A stretch of DNA of 64,000 nt, from assembly GCA_039194425.1 (NCBI GenBank), contig JBCCVZ010000005.1:293144-357143 (forward strand). The letters are read 5' to 3'. This document shows positions 549-13,282 of this stretch, one piece after another (positions within the stretch are counted from its first letter, which is position 1; every line of letters starts with the position of its first letter). The stretch is from Acidobacteriota bacterium. Its GTDB lineage: Bacteria > Acidobacteriota > Thermoanaerobaculia > Multivoradales > J023. The translations under genes and the position numbers were made by a program. The notes under the pieces were generated by a model, which made no database searches, was not told the DNA's origin, and saw only the letters and a program-made list of their open reading frames with translations.

Positions 549-574
<26 letters not shown>

Positions 575-3002
575 TCTCGTCGCCTGGAGCATCGCCGGCC
601 TGATCGCGGTCGGCGTTCTGCTGTGGGCGACGCCACGGCTCCTGCCGCTGGCGCCGGAGCCGTGGACCATCTCGCGCCACGAGGCGCACTGGATCGCCCT
701 CGAGCGGCTGCGCGCCCTCGGGGAGCCGATCGCCGACGCCTACGTCGTCGAGCGCGTGCTCGGTGACATCGCCCTCGAGCGGCGGCTGCAGATCGATCTC
801 GGCGCCGGCGCGTCGGCCGAGCGGCTCGAGCGGTTCGCCGCGAGCCAGCTGGGCGATCGCCTGCTGGTCTGGGAAGTCGCCGTCTACGCGCCGGGGGCGC
901 AGGCCGGGGACTGGACCGACCGGGCCTGGATCAGCCTCGATGGCATGGTCACGATGCTGCGTCGTCGCGGACTGCCGGCCGACCCGCGCGCACCGAGTGA
1001 CGACGAGGCGCGCCGCCGCGCGCTGGAGCACCTGCGCGCTCAGGGCTTCGATCCGACATCCTTCACCGGCCAGCCGACGGTGCAGCGCGATCGATTGCCT
1101 GATCGCGAGCGGGTCTCGGTGCGCTTCGCGGTGCGCGAGCGGGTGCTCGACGAGCCGCGTCCTCACGGCTTCGAGGTTGTGTTCGAGGGCGCCGCGCTGC
1201 GCGGATTCCAGCCGTGGCTCGACGACCCGGCGATCACCGAGGTTCAGCGCGACGTCGCGCGCATGCAGATCGGCACCTACATTCGCTCCAGTCTCGGATT
1301 CTTTCTGCTGCCGCTGGTCGCGATTCCGTTCTTGCGCCGCTACCACGAGGGTCTGCTCGGCGTGCGGCGCGGCGTACAGATTTTCCTCGTCTGTTGTGGT
1401 TCGGGCGTCGTCTTCCTCGTCCTCTACGCCGAGGTCTTGTCGGCCGAGGGCGGCTTCGGCTTCGTCGAGCGCGAGCAGACGACCTGGTTGCTGGCGCTGC
1501 TGGTCTTCTCGCTGCAGCTGGTTCCCTATGCCGCCACCGGCATGATGGCGTGGTCGACCGGCGAGTCGTACGCCCGCGGCCTGTGGCCGCAGGATCTCGC
1601 CTCGGTCGACGCGCTGCTCGGCCTGCGCTGGAGCTCGGCGACGATGGCGCGGGCCGCTCTGCGCGGCGTCGCGGCCGGCCTCGTCGGCACCGCGGTGCTT
1701 TACGCCGGCGGCGTGATCGCGCGCCGCTTCGACGTCTGGCCGACCGCCGCCTACGTGTTCGGCAACAGTCTCGACGGACCGTGGCCCGGCGTGGTGCTGC
1801 TCACCGGCATCTTCGCCAGCGTCATCCCGCTACTGCTGGTCGCGTTCGTCTTTCTGCCGGCCTGGATAGCGTCGCATCTCGGCGGCCGACGCCTGGTCGC
1901 GGCGCTGGTCGCGTACGGCGCCCTGGTGGCGCTGATGCCGATGTTGATCGCGATGCCGCTCGGCGGCGGCTGGGTGCTGTGGGCGATCACCGCCGTTGTG
2001 CCGGTGCTGGCCTTCTACCGCGGCGATCTGCTCTCCGGGCTGCTCGCGTGTGTGACGATCCTCTGCGCGACGCAGGCGCTGCAGCTGGTCGCCGCCGAGG
2101 ACGTCGGCCTGCAGGTCCAGGGCTGGGCGGTGCTGCTGGCCGTCGGTGCGCCTCTTTGGGCCAGCCTGCGCAGCCTCGGTCGTGGCGCCGAGATCGAGTA
2201 CACCTGGGACGACGTGCCGCCGCACGTACGCCGTATCGCCGAGCGCGAGCGCCAGCGCGTCGAGCTCGAGACCGCGCGCGAGATTCAGAGCTCGATCCTG
2301 CCCGACGTGCCGCCACGGCTCGCCGGCGTCGAGCTGGCGCACTGCTATTTGCCGGCGTCGGAGGTCGGCGGTGACTTCTACGATGTCCAGGAGCTCGCCG
2401 ACGGCCGCCTGGCGGTGGCGATCGGCGACGTCGCCGGGCACGGGGTGTCGAGCGGCCTGGTGATGTCGATGGTGCGGGCGGCGCTGGCGGTCCAGCTACG
2501 GGTCGATCCGTCGGTCGACGCAGTGGTCGCGACTTTGAACCACATCGTCGTGCGCAGCGCGCGCCGTCGCCTGCTCTCGACTCTGCTCTACGCGGTTGTC
2601 GACCCGCACCGGGGGATCGTCACCTGGGCCAGCGCGGGGCACGTCTACCCCTATCGCCTCGCCGCGGAGGGCGGTGTCGAGGCGCTCGAATCGGCCGCCT
2701 ATCCGCTCGGCGTGCGCGATGCGCTCGAGCTGCCGGTGCGCGACGGTCGACTGGCGGCGGGGGACAGCCTCGTGCTCTACAGCGACGGTCTGGTCGAGGC
2801 GCGTGCCGAGGGGTCGGACGAGCTCTTCGGCTTCGAGCGCCTGGAGCGAACGCTACGCCGCGAAGGCGGTCGGGACCCGGCAGCTCTGCGCGACGCCGTG
2901 CTCGATGCGGTCGACGAGTTCACCCAGGGCGCGCCCCAGGAAGATGATCTCACCGTCCTGGTGCTTCGTCTCCCCGCGCCGCCGCACGCCGCGTCGCGCT
3001 GA
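549..3002 (+). CDS. Multi-TM membrane protein with C-terminal PP2C/SpoIIE (RsbU-like) phosphatase domain
   Basis: [37 protein letters not shown] and DDLTVLV motifs; many hydrophobic segments; start uncertain (26-bp overlap with icd). Confidence 0.88.
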
Positions 3003-3143: not shown

Positions 3144-4994
3144 ATGCCCAAGCAGGCCGTTCTCTACGACGAGAAAGCGATCCAAACGCTCGATCCGCTG
3201 ACCCATATCCGCAAGCGCACCGGCATGTACATCGGGCGTTTGGGCGACGGCACGGATCCCGACGACGGCATTTACGTGCTGCTCAAGGAGGTCGTCGACA
3301 ACGCCATCGACGAGTTCATCATGGGCAAGGGCAAGCGGATCGAGATCGAGCGCGACGGCGACACCGTGACCGTGCGCGATTTCGGACGCGGCATCCCGCT
3401 CGGCAAGGTGGTCGATTGCGTCTCGCGAATGCACACCGGCGGCAAGTACAACGACGACGTCTTTCAGTTCTCGGTCGGCCTCAACGGCGTCGGAACCAAG
3501 GCGGTGAACGCGCTGTCGACCGACTTCGAGGTCTGCTCGTGGCGCGAGGGCAAGTTCAAGCGCGCGCACTTCGTCCGCGGCAAGCTGCAGGCGGAGAAGG
3601 GCGGCAAGGAGACGACGGCGCGCGACGGCACGTTCGTGCGCTTCACGCCCGACCCCGAGATCTTCGGTGAGTACGGCTGGCGCGAAGAGCACATCGAGGA
3701 CCGTCTGCGCTACTACGCCTTCCTCAACACCGGGCTGACGCTGGTGTACAACGGTCGCGGCTTCGCGTCGAAGGGCGGCCTGCGCGACCTGCTCGCCGCG
3801 GAGCTCGGCGACGGTGAAGGCCACGGCGGCGGCGAAGGACGCGGCGACGTCGAGCCGCTCTACGACATCGTCCACACCAAAGAAGACAAGCTCGAGTTCG
3901 CCTTCACCCACACCAACAGCTACGGCGAGAAGTACTACAGCTTCGTCAACGGCCAGCACACGTCGGACGGCGGTACACACCAGAGCGCGTTCCGTGAGGG
4001 CCTGCTGCGTGGCATCAACGAGTTCGCCGGCAAGAGCTTCGCCGGCGCCGACGTGCGCGACGGCCTGATCGGCGCGGTGGCCGTGAAGATCCAGGAGCCG
4101 GTGTTCGAGAGCCAGACCAAGAACAAGCTCGGTTCGACCGACGTGCGGCCCTGGATCGTCGAAGCGACGCGCCAGTCGGTGATGGTGTGGCTGCACAAGA
4201 ACGCCGACGTCGCCGAGCGCGTGATGCGCAAGATCGAGCAGAACGAGAAACTGCGCAAAGAGCTGCACGCGGTGAAGAAGAAGGCGCGCGAGCGCGCCAA
4301 GGCGACGGCGATCCGCATCCCCAAGCTCACCGACTGCAAGATCCACTTCGACACCAAGAAGCCGCGCGCCGACGAAAGCACGATCTTCCTCACCGAGGGC
4401 GACTCGGCGGGCGGCTCGATGGTGCAGTCGCGCGATGTCGATACACAGGCGATCTTCTCGCTGCGCGGCAAGCCGCAGAACACCTACTCGCTCGACCGCG
4501 CCGCGCTCTACAAGAACGAAGAGCTGTACAATATCATGCGAGCTCTCGGCATCGAGGAGTCGGTCGACGACCTGCGCTACAACCGGGTCGTTCTCGCCAC
4601 CGACGCCGATGTCGACGGCATGCACATCCGCAATCTCTTGCTGACCTACTTCCTGCGTTACTTTGAAGAGCTCGTCCTGCGCGGCCATGTCTACATCTTC
4701 GAGACACCGCTCTTCCGTGTGCGCAACAAGAAGGAAACCGTCTACTGCTATAGCGAGGCCGAGCGCCGCGCCGCCACCGAGCGCCTGCGCGGCCCGGAGA
4801 CGACCCGCTTCAAGGGCCTGGGCGAGATCTCGCCGCACGAGATGAAGCGCCTCATGGGCGCCGACATCCGCCTGGTGCCGGTGCAGATCAAAAAGATGAG
4901 CGAAGTCACCCGCGCGCTCGAGTTCTACATGGGCAAGAACACCCCCAAGCGCAAGGACTTCATTGTCGAGAACCTGATCTCGGAGGCGGTGTGA
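3144..4994 (+). CDS. parE: DNA topoisomerase IV subunit B (type IIA, GyrB/ParE family)
   Basis: HIRKRTGMYIG, EVVDNAIDE, GLNGVG, TEGDSAGG, DADVDGMHI and RFKGLGE motifs; RBS AGGAG upstream; 616 aa. Confidence 0.9.
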   Translation: MPKQAVLYDEKAIQTLDPLTHIRKRTGMYIGRLGDGTDPDDGIYVLLKEVVDNAIDEFIMGKGKRIEIERDGDTVTVRDFGRGIPLGKVVDCVSRMHTGGKYNDDVFQFSVGLNGVGTKAVNALSTDFEVCSWREGKFKRAHFVRGKLQAEKGGKETTARDGTFVRFTPDPEIFGEYGWREEHIEDRLRYYAFLNTGLTLVYNGRGFASKGGLRDLLAAELGDGEGHGGGEGRGDVEPLYDIVHTKEDKLEFAFTHTNSYGEKYYSFVNGQHTSDGGTHQSAFREGLLRGINEFAGKSFAGADVRDGLIGAVAVKIQEPVFESQTKNKLGSTDVRPWIVEATRQSVMVWLHKNADVAERVMRKIEQNEKLRKELHAVKKKARERAKATAIRIPKLTDCKIHFDTKKPRADESTIFLTEGDSAGGSMVQSRDVDTQAIFSLRGKPQNTYSLDRAALYKNEELYNIMRALGIEESVDDLRYNRVVLATDADVDGMHIRNLLLTYFLRYFEELVLRGHVYIFETPLFRVRNKKETVYCYSEAERRAATERLRGPETTRFKGLGEISPHEMKRLMGADIRLVPVQIKKMSEVTRALEFYMGKNTPKRKDFIVENLISEAV

Positions 4995-5022: not shown

Positions 5023-5703
5023 ATGAGCTCGACCGTTCCGACCGAGCCTTTCGTCGCGGTGATCGGCGACCTCGTCGGCTCACGCCAGATCGAAGACCGT
5101 GCTGCGGCGCAAGAGCGGCTGGTCGAGGTGCTCGAGCTTCTGAACACGAAATACCGAGAGCACGTCGCCTCGCGCTTCGTGGTCACGTTGGGCGACGAGT
5201 TCCAGGGATTGCTCGCGATCGATGCGCCGGTCGACGGTCTCTGGTGGACCTACCAGCGTGAGATGCCCTACCCCACGCACTTCGGCTTCGGCTTCGGTAC
5301 CCTCGCCACTCCCCTCAAGGCCGAGGCGCTGGGCATGGATGGACCGTGCTGGTACGCGGCGCGGTCTGCCCTCGAGCTCGCTGAAGTCGAAGCTCGGAGG
5401 TTCACCGTCGAGATTGTCGGAGAACCAGCGACGTCGCGCCGACTCAACAAGATCATCTCGCTCATTGATCGAACGATGGAGCGCTGGACCCCGAAACAAC
5501 TCGATACTGTGCTCCTTCTCCAAGAGCTCGAGTCCCAGCTCGAGGTCGCCGAAAGTAGAGGTGTCAAGGCGCAAACGGTCAGTGGGTCGCTGGAAGCGAG
5601 TTTGGGACAAGACGTCCTGGACTCGATCAGCGGAGTGCTGGAATTGGCACAGTCCATCTCAAGAACCAGTCCATCTCAAGAACAACGAGTCGAAATCGGC
5701 TGA
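5023..5703 (+). CDS. SatD-family protein (nucleotide-cyclase-like palm domain plus C-terminal HTH)
   Basis: AVIGDLVGSR, TLGDEFQGLL and MDGPCWYAARSAL motifs; C-terminal WTPKQ...SQLEVAESRGVKAQTVS HTH-like segment. Confidence 0.8.
   Translation: MSSTVPTEPFVAVIGDLVGSRQIEDRAAAQERLVEVLELLNTKYREHVASRFVVTLGDEFQGLLAIDAPVDGLWWTYQREMPYPTHFGFGFGTLATPLKAEALGMDGPCWYAARSALELAEVEARRFTVEIVGEPATSRRLNKIISLIDRTMERWTPKQLDTVLLLQELESQLEVAESRGVKAQTVSGSLEASLGQDVLDSISGVLELAQSISRTSPSQEQRVEIG
5650..5683. repeat. Perfect 17-bp tandem duplication CAGTCCATCTCAAGAAC x2 near the satD 3' end
   Basis: Read directly from the sequence. Confidence 0.9.
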
Positions 5704-5848
5704 TCGAAAGTTAATCAGCCGAAATCGGCTGATCGAAAGTTAATCAGCCGAAATCGGCTGATCGAAAGTTAATCAGCCGAAATCGGCTGATGCGCCAAGA
5801 ATCAATCGAGCACGGCAGATTCAGTGAGATCGTCCGAATTCAGTTGGC
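5685..5848. repeat. Array of 20-bp palindromic units (ATCAGCCGA-AA-TCGGCTGAT) at 28-29 bp period; perfect 29-bp tandem core at 5691-5791
   Basis: Units start at 5685 (3 mismatches), 5714, 5743, 5772 (perfect), 5801 (14/20) and 5829 (13/20); spacers CGAAAGTTA x3, GCGCCAAGA, TCAGTGAG. Confidence 0.9.
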
Positions 5849-5878
5849 CCATCAACAACCTGCTGAAGACTTCGCCCG

Positions 5879-6679
5879 ATGAGCCCGCCATTGCCCACGA
5901 TCCTCCTCGTCGCTGCCTATGCCGTGACCGAGTATGGAGTTCCCCAGACTCCGGGACAACCGATCCGGCTCAAGGGGGCATTTTGGCGTGCCGGAGGATT
6001 CTTGGCGCTCGCCGGGGCTTTGATCGCGCCATGGCTGACGCCGGTGTCGATCGCGCTTCTCGGCGTCGTCGCGATCATCCGAGAGCTGTCTCGCTCTGGA
6101 GTCGCCTGGCTCGACAACCGGATCCCGAACCATCAGCTCTACTGGCAATCCGTCCTCCTCGGAATGCACCTTTTGCTTCTGCTGAGCTGGTTGAAGATCT
6201 GCGGCGAGCAGCTCGCACGCGACGCGCCGACAGGCTTCCGACGGGTTCTCGTCGAACCCCTTCTCGGATCGACGCTCCTCGAGTTGACGGGGCTCATCGT
6301 AGCCGTCGGGGGAGGGACCGTCTTCATCCGAACTCTGCTGAGCCAGATCGGGCGACCTCGGGAGGCCGACAGCCACAGTCAGCAAGCAAGCAGCTTTCCG
6401 GACGAGGAAGAGATCCGAATGGGCAGGATCATCGGCAACCTCGAGCGAGTTCTGATCTTCGTGCTAGCCCTGAACGGGCAGCTCGACGCCATCGGTCTCG
6501 TTCTCGCTGCGAAGTCCCTCGCCCGATTCAAAGAGCTCGAAGACAAGCGCTTTAGCGAGTACTACCTCCTCGGTACCTTGAGCAGCACGCTCTTCGCCCT
6601 GTTCGCGGCATGGTTGACCGCTGCGGCGACGGACGCGTTCTACCCCGGCGCACACGGAATTCTGACCTCCGTGCTGTAG
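5879..6679 (+). CDS. DUF3307-like integral membrane protein (usual SatD partner)
   Basis: Multiple TM helices; C-terminal GRIIGNLERVLI...AAKSLARFKEL...FSEYYLLGTLSS motif; lies directly after satD. Confidence 0.72.
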   Translation: MSPPLPTILLVAAYAVTEYGVPQTPGQPIRLKGAFWRAGGFLALAGALIAPWLTPVSIALLGVVAIIRELSRSGVAWLDNRIPNHQLYWQSVLLGMHLLLLLSWLKICGEQLARDAPTGFRRVLVEPLLGSTLLELTGLIVAVGGGTVFIRTLLSQIGRPREADSHSQQASSFPDEEEIRMGRIIGNLERVLIFVLALNGQLDAIGLVLAAKSLARFKELEDKRFSEYYLLGTLSSTLFALFAAWLTAAATDAFYPGAHGILTSVL

Positions 6680-6708: not shown

Positions 6709-8628
6709 ATGACCTACGTCGAGCCGCTGATGCGGCGCAATTTTCTCGAGTACGCGAGCTACGTGATCGTCGATCGGGCGATTCCGGATCTGCGCGACGG
6801 CTGCAAGCCGGTGCAGCGGCGGATCCTGTGGACGCTCTTTGAGATGGACGACGGGCGCTTCCACAAGGTGGCGAATGTGATCGGCGAGTCGATGAAGCTG
6901 CATCCGCACGGCGACGCGTCGATCGGCGACGCGCTGGTGGTGCTGGCGAACAAGGAGTACTTCATCGAGCGGCAGGGTAACTTCGGGAACATCCTGACGG
7001 GACACCCCGCGGCGGCCTCGCGCTACATCGAGTGTCGGCTCACCGACCTCGCCCGCGACACGCTCTTCCAGCCCAAGCTGACGCAGATGCAGGCGTCGTA
7101 CGACGGGCGCAAGGACGAGCCGGTCTTCCTGCCGGTGAAGCTGCCGGTGACGCTGATGCTCGGCATCGAAGGCATCGCCGTCGGTATGTCGACACGGGTG
7201 CTGCCGCACAACTTCGCCGAGCTGCTACAGGCTCAGATCGATCTGCTCGAGGGGCGTGGGGTCTCCCTGCTGCCGGACTTCCGGCAGGGCGGCCTGATGG
7301 ACGCGGAGGAGTACGACGAAGGACGCGGCAAGGTGCGGGTGCGTGCGCGGGTCGAGACGTCGAAGGATCGCAAGACGCTCACCATCCGCGAGATCCCGTA
7401 CTCGACGACCACCGAGAGTCTGATCGCGTCGATCGAGCAGGCGAGCCAGAAAGGCAAGATCAAGGTCGCCTCGATCGACGACCGCACCGCCGAGGACGTC
7501 GAGATCGTCGTCCACCTGCCGCGCGGAGTCTACGCCGACGAGGTCGAGCCGCGGCTCTACGCCTACACCCAATGCGAGGTCTCGATCACCTCGAACCTGA
7601 CGCTGATCTTCAACGACCGCCCGGCCGAGCTGTCGGTCACGGAGGTGCTCGAGGCGCTCACCACGCGCCTGCGCGACCAGATCCGCGCCGAGCTTCAGCT
7701 CGAGCTCGGCGAGCTCGAGGACCGCCAGCACTGGCTCACTCTCGAGCAGATCTTCATCGAGAACCGGGTCTACAAGCGCATCGAGACCGCCAAGACCGCC
7801 GACGCGGTACGCGCCGAGGTGTGGACGGGGATGAAGCCGTACGAGGAGTTCTTCGTCCGGCCGATGGTCGACGACGACGTCGACCGCCTGCTCAAGATCC
7901 CGATTCGGCGCATCTCGCTCTACGACATCGAGAAGTGGCGCAAAGAGATCGACGACATCGTCGCCCGCATCAAGACCACGCGTGGCAAGCTGAAGCGGCT
8001 GACGCGCACGACCATCACGTACCTCGAGGGCGTGCTGGAGAAATACGGCTCGCAGTGGCCGCGGCGGACGACCATCGAGAGCTTCGACGTGGTGTCGAAG
8101 AAGGAGGTAGCGCGGGCCAACCTCAAGCTCTCGTACGATCGCGAGACCGGCCTCTTCGGAACCGACGTCAAGGGGTCGGAGTTCGAGCTCACGCTCAGCG
8201 AGTACGGCAAGGCGCTCGTCGTGTCCAAAGACGAAGGCTGGTACAAGGTGGTCGGCGTCGAAGAGAAGGTCTTCGTCGGTCAGAAGGTGCTCGAGATCGT
8301 GCCGTTCGACGACGACCAAGGCGTCGTGCTCACCTACGTCTACCGCGACGCCGAGCGCAATGGCTGGGGCAAGCGCATCCACGTCACAGGGTTCATCCGC
8401 GACAAGGAGTACGACCTGGTGAAGGATCGTGACGGCAAGGTCGTGCGTTTGTGGGTCGGCGAGCCGGCGATCGAGGTGCACATGGCGTACGTGCCGAAGA
8501 AGCGCCAGCGAGTCAACGAGAGCACGTATGACCTGCGCGAGCTCCGGGTTGTCGGCCTGGCGGCGCGTGGCCAGCGGATGGCTCCGAAGCCGGTGCAACG
8601 CTTCAAGTTCCGCAAGGCCGGCGGCTGA
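6709..8628 (+). CDS. parC: DNA topoisomerase IV subunit A (GyrA/ParC family)
   Basis: EYASYVIVDRAIPDLRDGCKPVQRRIL, HPHGDASI, QGNFG and catalytic AASRYIE; start moved to ATG 6709 (AAAGGA upstream). Confidence 0.9.
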   Translation: MTYVEPLMRRNFLEYASYVIVDRAIPDLRDGCKPVQRRILWTLFEMDDGRFHKVANVIGESMKLHPHGDASIGDALVVLANKEYFIERQGNFGNILTGHPAAASRYIECRLTDLARDTLFQPKLTQMQASYDGRKDEPVFLPVKLPVTLMLGIEGIAVGMSTRVLPHNFAELLQAQIDLLEGRGVSLLPDFRQGGLMDAEEYDEGRGKVRVRARVETSKDRKTLTIREIPYSTTTESLIASIEQASQKGKIKVASIDDRTAEDVEIVVHLPRGVYADEVEPRLYAYTQCEVSITSNLTLIFNDRPAELSVTEVLEALTTRLRDQIRAELQLELGELEDRQHWLTLEQIFIENRVYKRIETAKTADAVRAEVWTGMKPYEEFFVRPMVDDDVDRLLKIPIRRISLYDIEKWRKEIDDIVARIKTTRGKLKRLTRTTITYLEGVLEKYGSQWPRRTTIESFDVVSKKEVARANLKLSYDRETGLFGTDVKGSEFELTLSEYGKALVVSKDEGWYKVVGVEEKVFVGQKVLEIVPFDDDQGVVLTYVYRDAERNGWGKRIHVTGFIRDKEYDLVKDRDGKVVRLWVGEPAIEVHMAYVPKKRQRVNESTYDLRELRVVGLAARGQRMAPKPVQRFKFRKAGG

Positions 8629-8681: not shown

Positions 8682-9095
8682 ATGAATCCCGTTCCGATGG
8701 AGAGTTGCCCGCCGATGAGTGACGAGAGCTCCGCAGACCATGACTCCTCAGACCATGACTCCTCAGACCATGAAGAACGACGCAGCAGCCCGCGTGTCGA
8801 GAAGATCAACTTGGTGCAGGTGAGCCGCTTCGACGAAGAAGGGTTCCGCGCCGACCTGGCCGCCGGACGCACGGTGAACCTGTCGCGCGGCGGGGTTCGC
8901 ATCGAGCTTCACCATTCGCTGCCGCTCCGTTCCGAAGTGCGCATCGACGTCGCGGTCGGAGAGCAGGTGGTCGGCGTCGATGGCAAAGTCGTTCATCTGC
9001 AGGCGGTGGGCGAGGATCGCTGCGAGATCGGCATCGCGTTCGAGAATCTCGACGCCGAGACCGAGGCGCTGATCGCCGAGTACATCGACGACTGA
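8682..9095 (+). CDS. PilZ-domain protein (putative c-di-GMP receptor)
   Basis: ERRSSPR (RxxxR) and NLSRGG (D/NxSxxG) motifs; N-terminal DHDSS repeats from a 15-bp repeat at 8734-8773. Confidence 0.85.
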   Translation: MNPVPMESCPPMSDESSADHDSSDHDSSDHEERRSSPRVEKINLVQVSRFDEEGFRADLAAGRTVNLSRGGVRIELHHSLPLRSEVRIDVAVGEQVVGVDGKVVHLQAVGEDRCEIGIAFENLDAETEALIAEYIDD

Positions 9096-9150: not shown

Positions 9151-9224
9151 AGGCACCCAGTCTCAAGGTGCTCAGCCTCAGGACACACAGCCTCAGGCCA
9201 CACAGCCGCAGGACACCCAGCTCA
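9151..9224. repeat. Degenerate 15-bp tandem repeat x5 (consensus about GGACACACAGCCTCA)
   Basis: Units at 9151, 9166, 9181, 9196 and 9211. Confidence 0.8.
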
Positions 9225-12200
9225 GGGCACGCGGCGCGTCAGCCACTCCTCGACGTAGCGCCGATGCTCCGGCGTCGTCGGGAACGCTTCGCCGTGTGCG
9301 TACGGGTAGGCGCTCATGGCGTGGAACGGCAGCGGCTCGACCTGCAGACCCTCTCCGGTGTTGCGATCGGCGTCTTTGTCCCAGCCGACGCTCTCGAGGA
9401 ACAGACTGCGTCGCCAGCCGTCGGCCGGCGGCGTCGCCGGTGCCTCGAAGACGAGATCGATCTCGTCGCCGGCGGCGAGGATCACGCTCAGGTCGTCGAC
9501 CGCGTCGAGCAGCGGACGGACGTCGCCGTAGCGCGTGTATGAGCCGGGGAAGGGGAGCCACGGCGACTCGCTGCGGGCACGGTGGTAATCGAACTCGTGC
9601 GGCGCGTTGGGCGCCCGGCGCACCGGCGCCGAGAAGCCGCGGAAGCGCAGGTCGGCGCGTGTTGGAGCCAGTCGTGCGACGACCTCGGGCGCATCGTCGT
9701 CCGGCTGGTCGGTCCAGGCGATGCGATCCCAGTGCAGCCAGAACGATGTCACCAGGCGCAGGCGATGCGCCACCGAACCGTCGGCAGAGCGCGGCAGCGG
9801 CGGCAGATCGACGACCATCGTCTTGGTCTTGCCGGCGGGGAAGCCGACGACGGCGTCGAGCATCCGCCAGGTGCCGTCGACCTCGACTTCGAGGCGCGGC
9901 GGCGTCCACGGGTAGTCGTCGCGCTGGGCGACCGCGAGGTTGAGGCTCGCGTCGGCGGGGAAGATCCAGCCGTCGAGATGGAGGCGGAGCGGCCGGTCGG
10001 CGCTCGCCTGCACCGCCGCGGCGCCGAGATCGATCGTGAAGGTCCACAGCGCGGCGACGCCCTGGTACGGCGACGGCGTGTAGCCGTCGGCGTAGACGTC
10101 GTCGCGTGTCCGCACGCGCTCCGTGACGTCGTGGCCTCGACCGTCGGCCGCATGCGCCACGGGGCGCAGCGCCCGGCTGCCGAGCACCGTCTCGGGGGTC
10201 GTCGCGCCGGGGACCACCTTGAGCGCGCTCGCCACCTCGACCTCGTCTGGATGATCGACCACCCACAGGCGGACGAAGTCGAAGAAGGCGGCCTCCCAGA
10301 GCTCTTCGGTGACGCGCAGGCGATACTGGCCGTCGTCGACGACCAGGTCGGGCAGAGCCACCAGCTCGCGCGGATCGGAATCGACCCAGACCCCCGGCGC
10401 GGCGGGGAGACCGATCGGCGACGCCCACAGCAGGTCGGTGCCGAAGGCGAAGCGCTCGCCGTCCCACACATAGACGAAGGGACAGCTGCCCTTGAGCAGC
10501 TGCTCCTCGACGATGCGCTGATTCCGCGCCACGTCGAGGCGATTCTGCGGCACACCGTTGGTCCAGACCACACGCAGCACGTCGGCGCTGGGCCGCTCGC
10601 CGAGGCCGAAGTGGACGACGTCGCCCCGCGCTTCGCGGAACTGGAACGCGCCGTCGTCGCGAATTTCGACCACGCTGCCGCGCCCCAGCACGTTGTTCTT
10701 CGAGTTGCCCTGGGCCAGGCCGCGCAGACGGACTGCGAGATGCCCGTAGGCGTTCTCGGCCTCTTCCATCAGCCGATTGGTCCAGCGCACCAGGCCGTCC
10801 GGGCCGGCAGCGACCAGGTCGAGATCGCCGTCGAGATCGAGATCGACGGCCTCGAGCACCGTCAGCCGGGGCGTGTCGCCTGCCTGCTCGACGGCCAGAG
10901 CGCGGAACGTGCCGTCGGCGGTCTGCTGCAGAATGCGCAAGCCGCCCGCCCCCACGACGGCGAGGTCGAGACGACCGTCGTTGTCGGCGTCGAAGGCGCG
11001 CACCGAGGCGACATCGCCCGCCGCAAGCTCCGCCGTCAACGGCCAGTCGACGAAGCGGCCGACATCGGTGATGCCGTGATTGTCGCCGGCGGCACTGTCG
11101 CGGGTCTCGTTGCGCCAGATCTGCAGGCCGTCCGGGCCGCCGGCGAGAATCTCGGGCAGGCCGTCGGCGTCGAGATCGGCGGTTTCAACGGCGCGCATCG
11201 CGGCGCCCGGGCGCAGGCCGGCGCGCGCCGTGCGGTCGTCGAATCGTCCCTGGCGCAGGTTGTCCAGCCACTGGACCCCGCGACGATGGGCGATCACCAG
11301 GTCGAGATCGCCGTCGCGGTCGAGATCGCTGGCACGGACGGCGTGCGCGTCGAGCCGCGGCAACGCAGGCAGACTGGCTGCGCCGACGGCGGTGAGCGGG
11401 CCGTCGAGGGCATTGCGATAGAGCTCGAGTGTGGCGACGCCGCCGGTCGCGTCGGGATCGCGGCGGCCGACGGCGACCAGGTCGAGATCGCCCTCGATGT
11501 CGAAGTCGACGGCTTCGAGTCCGCGAGCGCCGAGGTTTCCGAGGCCGAGGTCGTCGGGGGCGCGCACCAGCAGGTCGTCGCCGGCGCCGAGGTAGACCGC
11601 CCCGCCGCCCGGGAACGAGGCGATCACGTCGCGCCGGCCGTCGTTGTCGAGATCGATGGCGAGCAGTGTCGCGTCGTCGAGCGGCGGGGTCGTGTTCTCG
11701 TCCGTCGGCGTCGACGCGTCGGCGCTCAGCGGCAGCTCGACGGCGATCGCCCAGCCGGTGGCGGCGGTGCGCAGCTCGAGGCTGCCGTCGACGCGCAGGC
11801 GCGCGAGATCGGGCCGTTCATCGCCGTCGGCGTCGAGCACGGCCAGAGCCGTGCCGGCGGTCGGCCGATCGTCGAGCGACGCGGCGACGAAGCGCGGTGA
11901 GAGAGGCGGGCCGAAGGCCGTCGGCATCGTCTCGCCCTCGAACCGAAAAACCGGAATGCCCTGAATGCCGGTCTTCAGCTCGCGCAGGCTCTCGCGATAC
12001 ATCGGTGTCACTTTGAGCACATTTTCAAGGCGCACCGCGGGCACCCGAGCGGCGGCGAGGTCGTCGCCAGCGAGCGCCTCGACGACTCCGCCCATCGCGC
12101 GGACGGCCATCGCCTCGGCCTGCCAGAGCAGCTCGCCGATGCGCTGGTAGGCGGCCGTGGCGACGGCGCGGTCGTCGCGCGCGATCGCCTGCTGGCCGAG

Positions 12201-12743
12201 CTGCGACAGCACGACGACGTTCTCCGGCCGGCGCGCGGCGAGCCTCTGCAGCGTGCGCCAGGCGAGCGCGTCGCCGGCGTCGCCGCGCACGGTGGTGGCG
12301 AGCGAGTAGGCGGAGTAGAGAATCTCGAGATCGTCAGGCGCCGCGCGCGACGCCGCGTCGATCGTGGTGAGTGCCGTGTCGAGGTCGCCGCTCCACTGCT
12401 CGACCTCGGCGCGGATAGCGAGCAGGTCAGGGCGGTCGGGAGCGAGCTCGAGAGCCGTCTCGACGGCGCTGCGCGCGCCGTCGTAGTCCTGGCGCCGGAG
12501 CAGGGCGATGGCGAGGTTGGCGTGGCCGAGGGGCTCGTCCGGCCGAAGCGCGATTAGCTCGCGGTACACCGCCGCCGCCTCTTCGGGCGTTTCGTTCTCG
12601 AGCAGCGCCAAGCCACGATCGCGTAGCGCGTCGGCCTGCTGCGCGGAGTCGCGCGGGACCTCGGTCTGCGCCGAGCTGGGCGCCGCGACGATCGAACACA
12701 GTAAGACGGCGCCGAGGAGGTACGAGGCGGTGCGCGAAGACAT
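9222..12743 (-). CDS. Secreted TPR + FG-GAP/VCBS repeat + ASPIC/UnbV (CRTAC1-like) protein
   Basis: Signal peptide, N-terminal TPRs, repeated DxDxDGDLDL motifs, VHFGLG...VVWTNG and GSCPFVYVWDG; start set at ATG 12743. Confidence 0.85.
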   Translation of the reverse strand: MSSRTASYLLGAVLLCSIVAAPSSAQTEVPRDSAQQADALRDRGLALLENETPEEAAAVYRELIALRPDEPLGHANLAIALLRRQDYDGARSAVETALELAPDRPDLLAIRAEVEQWSGDLDTALTTIDAASRAAPDDLEILYSAYSLATTVRGDAGDALAWRTLQRLAARRPENVVVLSQLGQQAIARDDRAVATAAYQRIGELLWQAEAMAVRAMGGVVEALAGDDLAAARVPAVRLENVLKVTPMYRESLRELKTGIQGIPVFRFEGETMPTAFGPPLSPRFVAASLDDRPTAGTALAVLDADGDERPDLARLRVDGSLELRTAATGWAIAVELPLSADASTPTDENTTPPLDDATLLAIDLDNDGRRDVIASFPGGGAVYLGAGDDLLVRAPDDLGLGNLGARGLEAVDFDIEGDLDLVAVGRRDPDATGGVATLELYRNALDGPLTAVGAASLPALPRLDAHAVRASDLDRDGDLDLVIAHRRGVQWLDNLRQGRFDDRTARAGLRPGAAMRAVETADLDADGLPEILAGGPDGLQIWRNETRDSAAGDNHGITDVGRFVDWPLTAELAAGDVASVRAFDADNDGRLDLAVVGAGGLRILQQTADGTFRALAVEQAGDTPRLTVLEAVDLDLDGDLDLVAAGPDGLVRWTNRLMEEAENAYGHLAVRLRGLAQGNSKNNVLGRGSVVEIRDDGAFQFREARGDVVHFGLGERPSADVLRVVWTNGVPQNRLDVARNQRIVEEQLLKGSCPFVYVWDGERFAFGTDLLWASPIGLPAAPGVWVDSDPRELVALPDLVVDDGQYRLRVTEELWEAAFFDFVRLWVVDHPDEVEVASALKVVPGATTPETVLGSRALRPVAHAADGRGHDVTERVRTRDDVYADGYTPSPYQGVAALWTFTIDLGAAAVQASADRPLRLHLDGWIFPADASLNLAVAQRDDYPWTPPRLEVEVDGTWRMLDAVVGFPAGKTKTMVVDLPPLPRSADGSVAHRLRLVTSFWLHWDRIAWTDQPDDDAPEVVARLAPTRADLRFRGFSAPVRRAPNAPHEFDYHRARSESPWLPFPGSYTRYGDVRPLLDAVDDLSVILAAGDEIDLVFEAPATPPADGWRRSLFLESVGWDKDADRNTGEGLQVEPLPFHAMSAYPYAHGEAFPTTPEHRRYVEEWLTRRVP

Positions 12744-12751
12744 CGAAAGAC

Positions 12752-13282
12752 TCACCAGTTGACGAGAAAGGTGCACGAGGAGCCGCCGTCGCGCCGCGAC
12801 TCGGCCTGATGGTCGATGCGGACGTCGACCAGCGAGTCGGGCTCGAATCGCTCGACCAGGGCCTGGATCACGCCCTCGTCGAAATTGGGCGGGTACGGAG
12901 TGGTGGACACGATGGTGCAGCTGCGCTCGCCGGTCGCGATGTACGCGTAGTGACCGACGTCGCCACCCCGGTGCTCGCGCCGGTAGGCCTCGTCGAGAAC
13001 GTTGAACGCCTCTTCGAGATTGTGCACCTCGCTCGGCGCCGGGCCGGTGGCCGAGATGTGGCGGCCGATGGCGGTCACCGTGTTGGGACCGATGCGCTGC
13101 GCCACGGTGTCGAAGCAGCCGAGGAAGCGGTCGAGCGGATACCAGGACTCGGGCTGTGCTTCGCCGAGACCGTTGGCGCCGAGAATCTCGCGTGCCACCG
13201 TTTTGAAGGCGCCCATCACGCCGATGATCGAGAGCACGACACGTCCGCTGACTTCGGTCTTCGCATGGGCCTCGCTTGGCAC
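12752..13282 (-). CDS. Hypothetical protein, possible V4R/H-NOX-like ligand-binding fold
   Basis: Strong RBS (GGAGGAG) before GTG 13282; SWYPL, TPYP..FDEG and C-terminal SCTFLVNW pattern. Confidence 0.55.
   Translation of the reverse strand: MPSEAHAKTEVSGRVVLSIIGVMGAFKTVAREILGANGLGEAQPESWYPLDRFLGCFDTVAQRIGPNTVTAIGRHISATGPAPSEVHNLEEAFNVLDEAYRREHRGGDVGHYAYIATGERSCTIVSTTPYPPNFDEGVIQALVERFEPDSLVDVRIDHQAESRRDGGSSCTFLVNW

Follow-up and report, generated by a model that had tools for sequence, protein, structure and literature searches.

SatD and a membrane partner at the parE-parC junction of an Acidobacteriota bacterium: a palm-domain, helix-turn-helix protein beside a 29-bp-phased box array

Within a 64,000-nucleotide stretch of an Acidobacteriota genome (contig JBCCVZ010000005.1, positions 293,144 to 357,143; hereafter the window), two genes, satD and satE, lie between a parE-like gene and parC, and an array of palindromic boxes with a 29-bp period separates the two. 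Our analysis tips, by a modest degree, towards SatD being a dimeric DNA-binding regulator that acts on these phased boxes, carries a nucleotide-binding palm domain and controls satE, whose product would probably be harmful if unrestrained. Because 29-bp box phasing recurs across the SatD family, a dimeric DNA-binding regulator is the most likely role for this protein. The family is already in Pfam; the instance described here differs by an operator between the genes and by a degenerate DUF3307 half of the partner. A cyclase fold, a helix-turn-helix (HTH), a 29-bp-phased array and an obligate membrane partner together make a new kind of regulatory or guard module that can be put to the test.

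In the mechanism that we propose, the cassette would be a long-term resident of the parE-parC operon junction in this Acidobacteriota family. SatD dimers, with the HTH as their working part, would occupy the four 20-bp boxes and set the transcription of satE, probably by repression, as well as read-through towards parC, while the palm, its putative metal- and NTP-binding residues retained, would bind, and perhaps convert, a nucleotide that sets DNA occupancy. SatE would be a membrane output of 6-7 helices that acts via a conserved C-terminal module, and its release would probably do harm in a toxin-antitoxin-like logic. In this clade satD may be without an operator of its own and be made together with parE, with just satE behind the operator. 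Since the operator is relocated to a position between satD and satE, regulator and target would be uncoupled, which offers a natural experiment.

The 29-bp-phased box array

A perfect 29-nt repeat of 3.5 copies (5691-5791), absent from the initial annotation of this DNA, lies between satD and satE; with 100% matches and a score of 202 in Tandem Repeats Finder (TRF) it is the top-scoring tandem repeat of the window. The box reads ATCAGCCG-AAAT-CGGCTGAT and measures 20 bp, with 9 bp between boxes. Perfect boxes occupy 5714-5733, 5743-5762 and 5772-5791, and an imperfect first box (5685-5704) overlaps the satD stop codon. The array is unique genome-wide: all 3 matches found when up to 3 mismatches were allowed fall at this locus.

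The same spacing was found in relatives. For this comparison the 200 nt ahead of satD were taken from 77 loci, with 64 stretches 1.6 kb upstream as controls. In 29 of the 77 loci exact 8-mers are repeated in this region at a distance of exactly 29 bp, and in 16 at 58 bp; other spacings between 10 and 60 bp each turn up in 0-3 loci. The 29-bp spacing occurs in 0 of the 64 control stretches and is likewise absent from the stretches that follow the cassette. When 10-mers with one mismatch were counted, a spacing of 28-30 bp was present in 38 of the 77 loci. Present on both strands in fixed register, the recurring words outline boxes of 20-23 bp. Where the spacer between satD and satE is at least 30 nt long (11 loci), the 29-bp period is found within it in L025, L026, L051, L071 and L080.

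Among the closest relatives the period is retained and the boxes are different. Genome G004 has another perfect 29-nt palindromic repeat, AAGTTGCA-N8-TGCAACTT plus 5 nt, which runs from right after satD to the contig end (L023:3045-3152) and probably caused the assembly break of that contig. In G001, G003 and L025, 2-3 boxes of the form GTCAGGC-N6-GCCTGAC follow satD at 29-30 bp. A period that is kept while the box sequence shifts even within one genus would be expected from a DNA-binding dimer whose specificity co-evolves, and 29-bp phasing of palindromic boxes is, as far as sequence comparison can tell, a hallmark of the SatD family.

The array could also act as RNA, with a stack of stem-loops that processes, stabilises or attenuates the transcript. 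Its predicted RNA fold is very stable (-54.4 kcal/mol, z -8.5; 0 of 200 shuffles fold as well), and the repeat sits within a probable single transcript. We nevertheless think such a role very improbable: the array has no U-tract terminator, an Rfam scan returned chance microRNA rows only (E 0.15-0.22, far below gathering), with no family better than E 0.15, and in most loci the array stands upstream of satD. Because the 29-bp period is conserved and the sequence is not, protein-DNA geometry fits the array better than a conserved RNA does.

SatD and its membrane partner

The sat names reportedly go back to a 'secretion and acid tolerance' operon of Streptococcus mutans, said to have been described by Kremer in 2001. 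The SatD protein of the window passes the corresponding Pfam model PF16264 (E 7.5e-25; 88.3 bits against a cut-off of 29; residues 10-186). An initial annotation of this DNA, made from sequence, had singled out two acidic motifs, GDLVGS and GDEFQ; both are present in the translation, as VIGDLVGSR and TLGDEFQG. In an alignment of 35 homologues (A1) the invariant columns are I14, D16, S20, R26, Q30, T55, G57-D58-E59-F60, G90, G92, D106-G107 and A113-R114, and D16, D106, G107, A113 and R114 are kept in 82 of 82 SatDs. The palm domain covers approximately residues 4-150 (nt ~5032-5472) and contains IGD16...S20, G57-D58-E59-F60-Q61, D106-G107 and A113-R114.

The AlphaFold2 model built from A1 is confident, with a predicted local distance difference test score (pLDDT) of 95.5 and a predicted template-modelling score (pTM) of 0.90. 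Its N-terminal domain runs beta-alpha-beta-beta-alpha-beta-alpha-beta, with helices after it. Strand 1 closes with D16, and the turn that joins strands 2 and 3 is made of G57-F60. Judged by secondary structure alone, D16 and D58-E59 would stand at the metal-binding positions of palm domains (end of strand 1 and strand 2-3 hairpin). The palm fold expected by the initial annotation, for which structure prediction and Foldseek had been suggested, was recovered by two independent searches. In an all-against-all structure search, 50 of the 50 matches listed are cyclase, GGDEF, Cas10, mCpol or GTP cyclohydrolase III palms (Z 8.6-11.3). In a Foldseek search of the PDB the matches, at probability 1.00, include GGDEF domains, class III cyclases, Cas10 and the Panoptes mCpol OptS. 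The top Foldseek match is 9f80, a fragment of the regulator Rv2242 with a GGDEF-like domain plus HTH (E 2.4e-4), and row 8 is 3onq. The Pfam models GGDEF and Guanylate_cyc gave no match to SatD up to E 10.

The annotated HTH was likewise confirmed. It falls in the C-terminal helical part (approximately residues 150-205), where a profile of SatD relatives matches HTH chains of LuxR/GerE/MarR type (E ~1e-3, residues ~118-205); GerE or Sigma70_r4_2 is precomputed on 4 of the 35 SatD homologues. According to the model, then, SatD joins a palm of class III cyclase/GGDEF/Cas10 type to a C-terminal HTH of LuxR/sigma-4-like kind. At E <=0.001 a profile of the palm alone matches 3,296 cluster representatives, and at E <=1e-10 it matches 2,145. 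Most of the best 150 matches are 210-235 aa long. Six of the 150 are tandem SatD-SatD proteins of 410-428 aa with two palm-plus-HTH units (P0079, P0090, P0103, P0120, P0154 and P0202), which we count as support for a SatD dimer, and four carry tetratricopeptide (TPR) repeats after SatD (P0152, P0164, P0175 and P0203; 326-511 aa). No SatD-SatE fusion was present among these best 150.

SatE has at least 5 hydrophobic 19-residue stretches by hydropathy and an AlphaFold2 model made of helices throughout (pLDDT 86), in line with its earlier description as a protein with multiple transmembrane segments. Its naming as a DUF3307 protein stands in part. SatE itself has no Pfam match, including DUF3307 (PF11750) at E up to 10, and a six-frame search of the whole genome gave no PF11750 match for satE at E up to 1. 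However, 15 of 19 non-self phmmer matches of SatE carry PF11750 (E 4e-15 to 3e-6), and against the Atlas predicted structures SatE reaches a template-modelling (TM) score of 0.76 to a cluster that is 100% DUF3307. Since a direct Pfam match is absent, SatE is tied to DUF3307 only through its PF11750-bearing homologues and this predicted-structure match.

The two halves of SatE have fared differently. In canonical partners (P0005, P0007, P0014, L034, L035 and L051) the PF11750 model spans just residues ~10-120. In an alignment of 68 partners, the polar columns H, Q, K, H, H, D, Q and H of the N-terminal half are conserved in 55-59 sequences; the SatE of the window keeps 1 of these 8, H97. In the C-terminal half G182, G186, E189, K212, Y228, G232 and S236 are each found in 68 of the 68 partners and are all kept here, and R190 and R216 also belong to the conserved residues. 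To judge by the alignment, the His-rich DUF3307-type half of this SatE is degenerate and its C-terminal half conserved, and the loss of the His-rich half suggests that the C-terminal module is the part that matters. The most conserved module of the partners, the C-terminal GxxxGxxER...AAKSxARF...EYYLxGTLxS, has no Pfam model. For the SatE model the best Foldseek match in the PDB has an E of 0.89, so there is no solved-fold match, and Pfam, the all-helical model and the PDB search revealed no nucleotide-sensing or soluble domain. A prediction of the SatD-SatE complex scored 0.00 and counts neither way.

Degeneration of this kind might suggest a passenger in decay, a cassette that has no function in this lineage at present. 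Besides the N-terminal half of SatE, with 7 of 8 conserved polar residues lost, there is a 17-nt duplication in the satD tail which, not being a multiple of three, altered the last codons and the stop, and one relative (G005) has lost the cassette. Yet both ORFs (open reading frames) are intact, all family-invariant residues of SatD and of the C-terminal half of SatE are retained, and both models are confident. Near-identical satD and satE pieces are moreover present in contigs from three other coded runs (runs X1-X4 were compared), and a related-strain contig in run X2 (depth 3.1) has one 17-nt copy fewer in the satD tail. These contigs break within the 29-nt array, so its copy number is unreadable there. 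We consider decay hardly credible.

Distribution of the pair and occupancy of the parE-parC junction

SatD and its partner are linked across phyla. A scan of one genome per species yielded at least 565 SatD relatives, and 80 loci were kept. In 75 of these, which come from many phyla, satD is directly followed by a SatE-like ORF in the same orientation, in most cases with 3-10 nt of overlap; among the 5 loci without one, 2 break off less than 350 bp past satD. Of the 142 immediate neighbours most are housekeeping genes, the rest being mixed, and about 6 are mobile or defence-like (integrase, resolvase, BrxL, RhuM/Fic, WYL, DUF4143). A separate SatD clade, with several records labelled Eisenbacteria, sits at the junction of two adjacent housekeeping genes, birA and coaX (birA in 6 loci, coaX in 6, both in 4; L027, L032, L033, L035, L036, L038, L079 and L103). 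Phage records contain no SatD relative, and 2 of 72,556 plasmids encode one. The spread is patchy, with SatD in 9 of 41 related genomes and in 3 of the 7 other genomes of the genus.

In the literature searched we found no function for the SatD/SatE family and no work linking bacterial SatD to cyclases; PMC10326533 and PMC8504454 merely mention the family names. In Streptococcus pyogenes satD is reported to occur in 178 of 249 genomes, to be the sole 'essential accessory' gene and to be essential in transposon sequencing (Tn-seq) of emm1, emm28 and emm49 (PMC11323703).

The initial annotation had proposed a nucleotide-signalling defence pair, in which SatD synthesises a signal and SatE is the membrane effector that reads it, as in anti-phage systems of CBASS or Pycsar type; one could also picture a variant of Panoptes type, in which a signal made constitutively would keep the effector switched off. 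This proposal fared poorly, and we regard it as unlikely. SatD and SatE have no PADLOC match up to E 1, the phage records gave no match and the 72,556 plasmids just 2, and SatE is without a recognised soluble or nucleotide-binding domain and without a solved-fold match. The few mobile or defence-like neighbours do not amount to residence in defence islands or mobile elements; the cassette is instead stable at lineage-specific housekeeping junctions (parE-parC here, birA-coaX elsewhere). To our knowledge, signalling synthases of the palm kind carry no HTH or operator array. The structural matches to mCpol OptS (9mnr, Z 9.3; 9pd0_C, TM 0.58 by target length) do not surpass the ones to common GGDEF and cyclase domains, although together with the intact acidic motifs of the palm they do speak for signalling. 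So do the obligate two-gene unit with a membrane protein, the patchy distribution, the fast divergence of SatD relative to ParE and the presence, at the same junction in three relatives, of an ATPase pair with AriA/AbiLi-like PADLOC matches (below). A precedent exists in Panoptes, where a minimal palm synthase constitutively restrains a membrane effector (PMC12657218), and the reported essential accessory status of satD in S. pyogenes (PMC11323703) would suit a restraining synthase.

The state of the junction was compared in the 24 genomes of the family, the source genome included; a whole-family search and a search for relatives gave the same 24. The initial annotation had raised the question whether parE and parC are adjacent in relatives; the two are separated by 7-71 bp in 8 of these genomes (Table 1).

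Table 1. State of the parE-parC junction in the 24 genomes
State	Genomes	n
SatDE between parE and parC	G000, G003, G018	3
satD directly after parE, contig ends there	G001, G004	2
satE deletion scar in 133-bp parE-parC gap	G005	1
AAA_21 ATPase two-gene cassette in junction	G002, G006, G019	3
parE and parC 7-71 bp apart, nothing between	G007, G008, G011, G013, G014, G017, G020, G022	8
parE and parC apart in genome	G010, G015, G016	3
Junction state not judgeable	G009, G012, G021, G023	4

The gap in G005 (L016, minus strand, ~1968-2066) retains a remnant of 23-33 residues of the satE C-terminus, with the EYY-LGTLSS segment (tblastn E 0.001). It is therefore a deletion scar, and the cassette was formerly present. 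The alternative occupant (L011:1917-3742 in G002; L012:2086-3911, minus strand, in G006; L124:277-2090, minus strand, in G019) encodes an ATPase of 383 aa (PF13304, 2.2e-19; PADLOC AriA 1.7e-20 and AbiLi 1.7e-13) and a partner of 225 aa with a weak DUF4276 match that lies below the cut-off (E 0.007). The copy in G019 is 39% and 34.5% identical to that in G002. Scar and ATPase cassette illustrate the gain and loss of such cassettes within an operon that is essential.

A quick maximum-likelihood tree of 103 SatDs (L026 and P0025 left out as duplicates) places the five parE-linked SatDs, from two genera, in one clade together with L025 and three metagenome proteins, at 98 in the Shimodaira-Hasegawa-like approximate likelihood ratio test (SH-aLRT). 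The tips are long (0.56-0.81), and other SatDs of the same order (G008, G036, G035 and G024) are placed elsewhere in the tree. Between genomes SatD is 42-47% and SatE 38-40% identical where ParE is 75-81% identical. From the junction states, the clade and these identities we conclude that the cassette is old at parE-parC, evolves fast and has repeatedly been lost or replaced. Vertical conservation at the site, which the initial annotation had named as evidence against its own reading, is therefore seen in one respect, namely a single SatD clade across two genera, and not in another, since 12 of the 24 genomes have nothing, a scar or a different cassette at the site. An origin from a transposon or integron-like element was considered and rejected: no integrase, terminal repeats or target duplication were found at the junction, and in G003 and G018 satD overlaps the parE stop.

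The same observations bear on a plainer possibility, namely that SatD is an ordinary ligand-sensing repressor, similar to PucR/CdaR with a dead GGDEF-like domain, and SatE a protein of membrane stress or the envelope, with no conflict or toxin logic involved. Housekeeping neighbours, a vertically stable location within clades, the name of the S. mutans operon and the PucR-type regulators 9f80 and 3onq among the top Foldseek matches are all in its favour. A degenerate domain, however, would not be expected to keep the invariant acidic residues of SatD, and close relatives have lost the cassette, keep a scar of it or carry a replacement, while proteins and operator sequences diverge very fast within one genus. 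Being essential as an accessory gene, as reported in PMC11323703, would also be odd for a stress regulator. We hold this reading, too, to be unlikely.

In the window the genes are arranged head to tail on the + strand in the order parE, satD, satE-like, parC (Table 2), with 28 nt from the parE stop to the satD start, a spacer of 175 nt between satD and satE, and 29 nt from the satE stop to the parC start. All NCBIfam scores of the parE-like gene are under the curated cut-offs; its orthologues within the family are 73-81% identical. For parC the NF007209 alignment (800 bits, cut-off 644) begins at residue 34 of the long ORF that opens at 6610, hence the true start is put at ~6709. That satD and satE have more A/T-ending codons than the parE and parC genes between which they lie, as first noted in the initial annotation, is correct: the GC content at third codon positions (GC3) is 0.73 and 0.77, against 0.91 for parE and 0.92 for parC. 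The contrast is real yet moderate, because the neighbouring PilZ gene has a GC3 of 0.78. No intrinsic terminator and, in a scan restricted to the sigma-70 consensus, no promoter was found on the + strand of the parE-parC interval. Contig joints that skip from 4825 to ~6800 were dismissed, their sides being just 20-23 letters at 85% likeness and pointing to other organisms or paralogues. The N-terminus of the PilZ protein contains a 15-nt x 3 repeat (8729-8773).

Table 2. Features of the cassette and its surroundings (positions in the window)
Feature	Position	Strand	Basis or description
parE-like gene (topoisomerase IV/gyrase B-type subunit)	3144..4994	+	Pfam DNA_gyraseB 3.2e-34, Toprim, HATPase_c, DNA_gyraseB_C
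satD	5023..5703	+	226 aa; Pfam SatD PF16264
17-nt perfect tandem duplication in disordered 3' tail of satD	5650..5683	+	TRF, 2.0 copies, 100%
Operator-like array, four 20-bp palindromic boxes, 29-bp period	5685..5791	.	TRF and inverted-repeat arms
satE-like membrane protein gene	5879..6679	+	266 aa; homologues carry PF11750
parC (topoisomerase IV subunit A)	6709..8628	+	NF007209 1.7e-240; Pfam DNA_topoisoIV 1.3e-100
Large membrane protein	549..3002		C-terminal SpoIIE phosphatase domain
PilZ protein	8682..9095		
1184-aa protein	9222..12776	-	

Weighing the mechanism and comparison with known systems

A gene that keeps a harmful partner in check would be expected to show just what satD is reported to show in S. 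pyogenes, namely essentiality despite accessory status, and the suggested harmfulness of SatE derives from this single published observation on satD (PMC11323703).

Several points weigh against SatD as a regulator that restrains SatE from the array. The essentiality in S. pyogenes may have other causes. By the 10-mer measure 39 of the 77 loci are without a 28-30-bp repeat upstream of satD, and after satD of G018 no clear boxes were recognised. The very stable predicted RNA would also fit a role of the array at the RNA level. If SatD blocked read-through, it would also lower the essential parC, because the sigma-70 consensus scan found no separate promoter for that gene. As to the palm, that GDEFQ never varies among the 80 loci is a circular result, since the pattern T[LV]GDEFQ[GA][LV] served to fetch them; D58-E59 are also invariant in the 35 sequences of A1. 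Profile similarity is weak: when SatD is compared by hhalign with 12 GGDEF domains, of which 11 belong to this genome and one to locus L069, LGDEFQ falls on GGDEF at a probability of 11% and E 0.0027, and against three cyclase domains of this genome the result is not significant (probability 1%).

A bolder version of the mechanism makes SatD a DNA-templated nucleotide cyclase. Dimers bound to the boxes would pair neighbouring palms head to tail, so that SatD would be active only on the array; its product or its occupancy would keep SatE off, and stripping SatD from the DNA or draining the nucleotide would release SatE and stop growth. Phage takeover, DNA damage or changes of supercoiling beside topoisomerase IV might act as triggers. 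If true, this would be a Panoptes-like guard with a chromosomal operator array as its sensor. We rate it as decidedly unlikely, and turn back to SatD as a dimeric, box-binding regulator of satE for comparison with known systems.

With class III adenylyl/guanylyl cyclase and GGDEF domains (5mbg, 3et6, 5euh, 1ybu) SatD shares the palm fold (Z up to 11.3 over 138 residues), the Asp at the end of strand 1 and the GDEF turn between strands 2 and 3; it differs by the fusion to an HTH, the operator array and the weakness of the profile similarity. In PucR/CdaR regulators (the C-terminal part of Rv2242/MabR, 9f80; BAD_0249, 3onq) a GGDEF-like domain likewise precedes a C-terminal HTH, and they align over the full length of SatD, but the TM score is just 0.27-0.34 with a root-mean-square deviation of ~14 A, and there is no Pfam match to those families. 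The invariant acidic residues, the shorter length and the constant membrane partner also set SatD apart from them.

The likeness to Panoptes lies in the two-gene unit, with a small palm protein first and a membrane protein second, and in the structural match to OptS. OptS has no HTH whereas SatD has one, and SatDE has no PADLOC match. According to PMC12657218, OptE has a soluble nucleotide-binding beta-barrel, unlike the all-helical SatE; the logic of a synthase restraining a toxic effector, taken from the same source, would explain an essential accessory satD. Type II toxin-antitoxin systems resemble SatDE in being small two-gene units with coupled translation, palindromic operators, a patchy and fast-evolving spread and a regulator reported as essential. 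Here it is the enzyme-like domain of SatD, the atypical 29-bp multi-box array and the lack of enrichment on plasmids and phages that differ.

The closest likeness is to the SatD/DUF3307 family itself, represented by the sat operon of S. mutans, with which the cassette of the window shares the gene order, the partner directly downstream and the 29-bp phasing. Within this family it stands out by an array between satD and satE rather than, as usual, upstream of satD, by a 175-nt spacer where the genes overlap in most loci, and by a partner whose N-terminal half has moved beyond recognition by Pfam.

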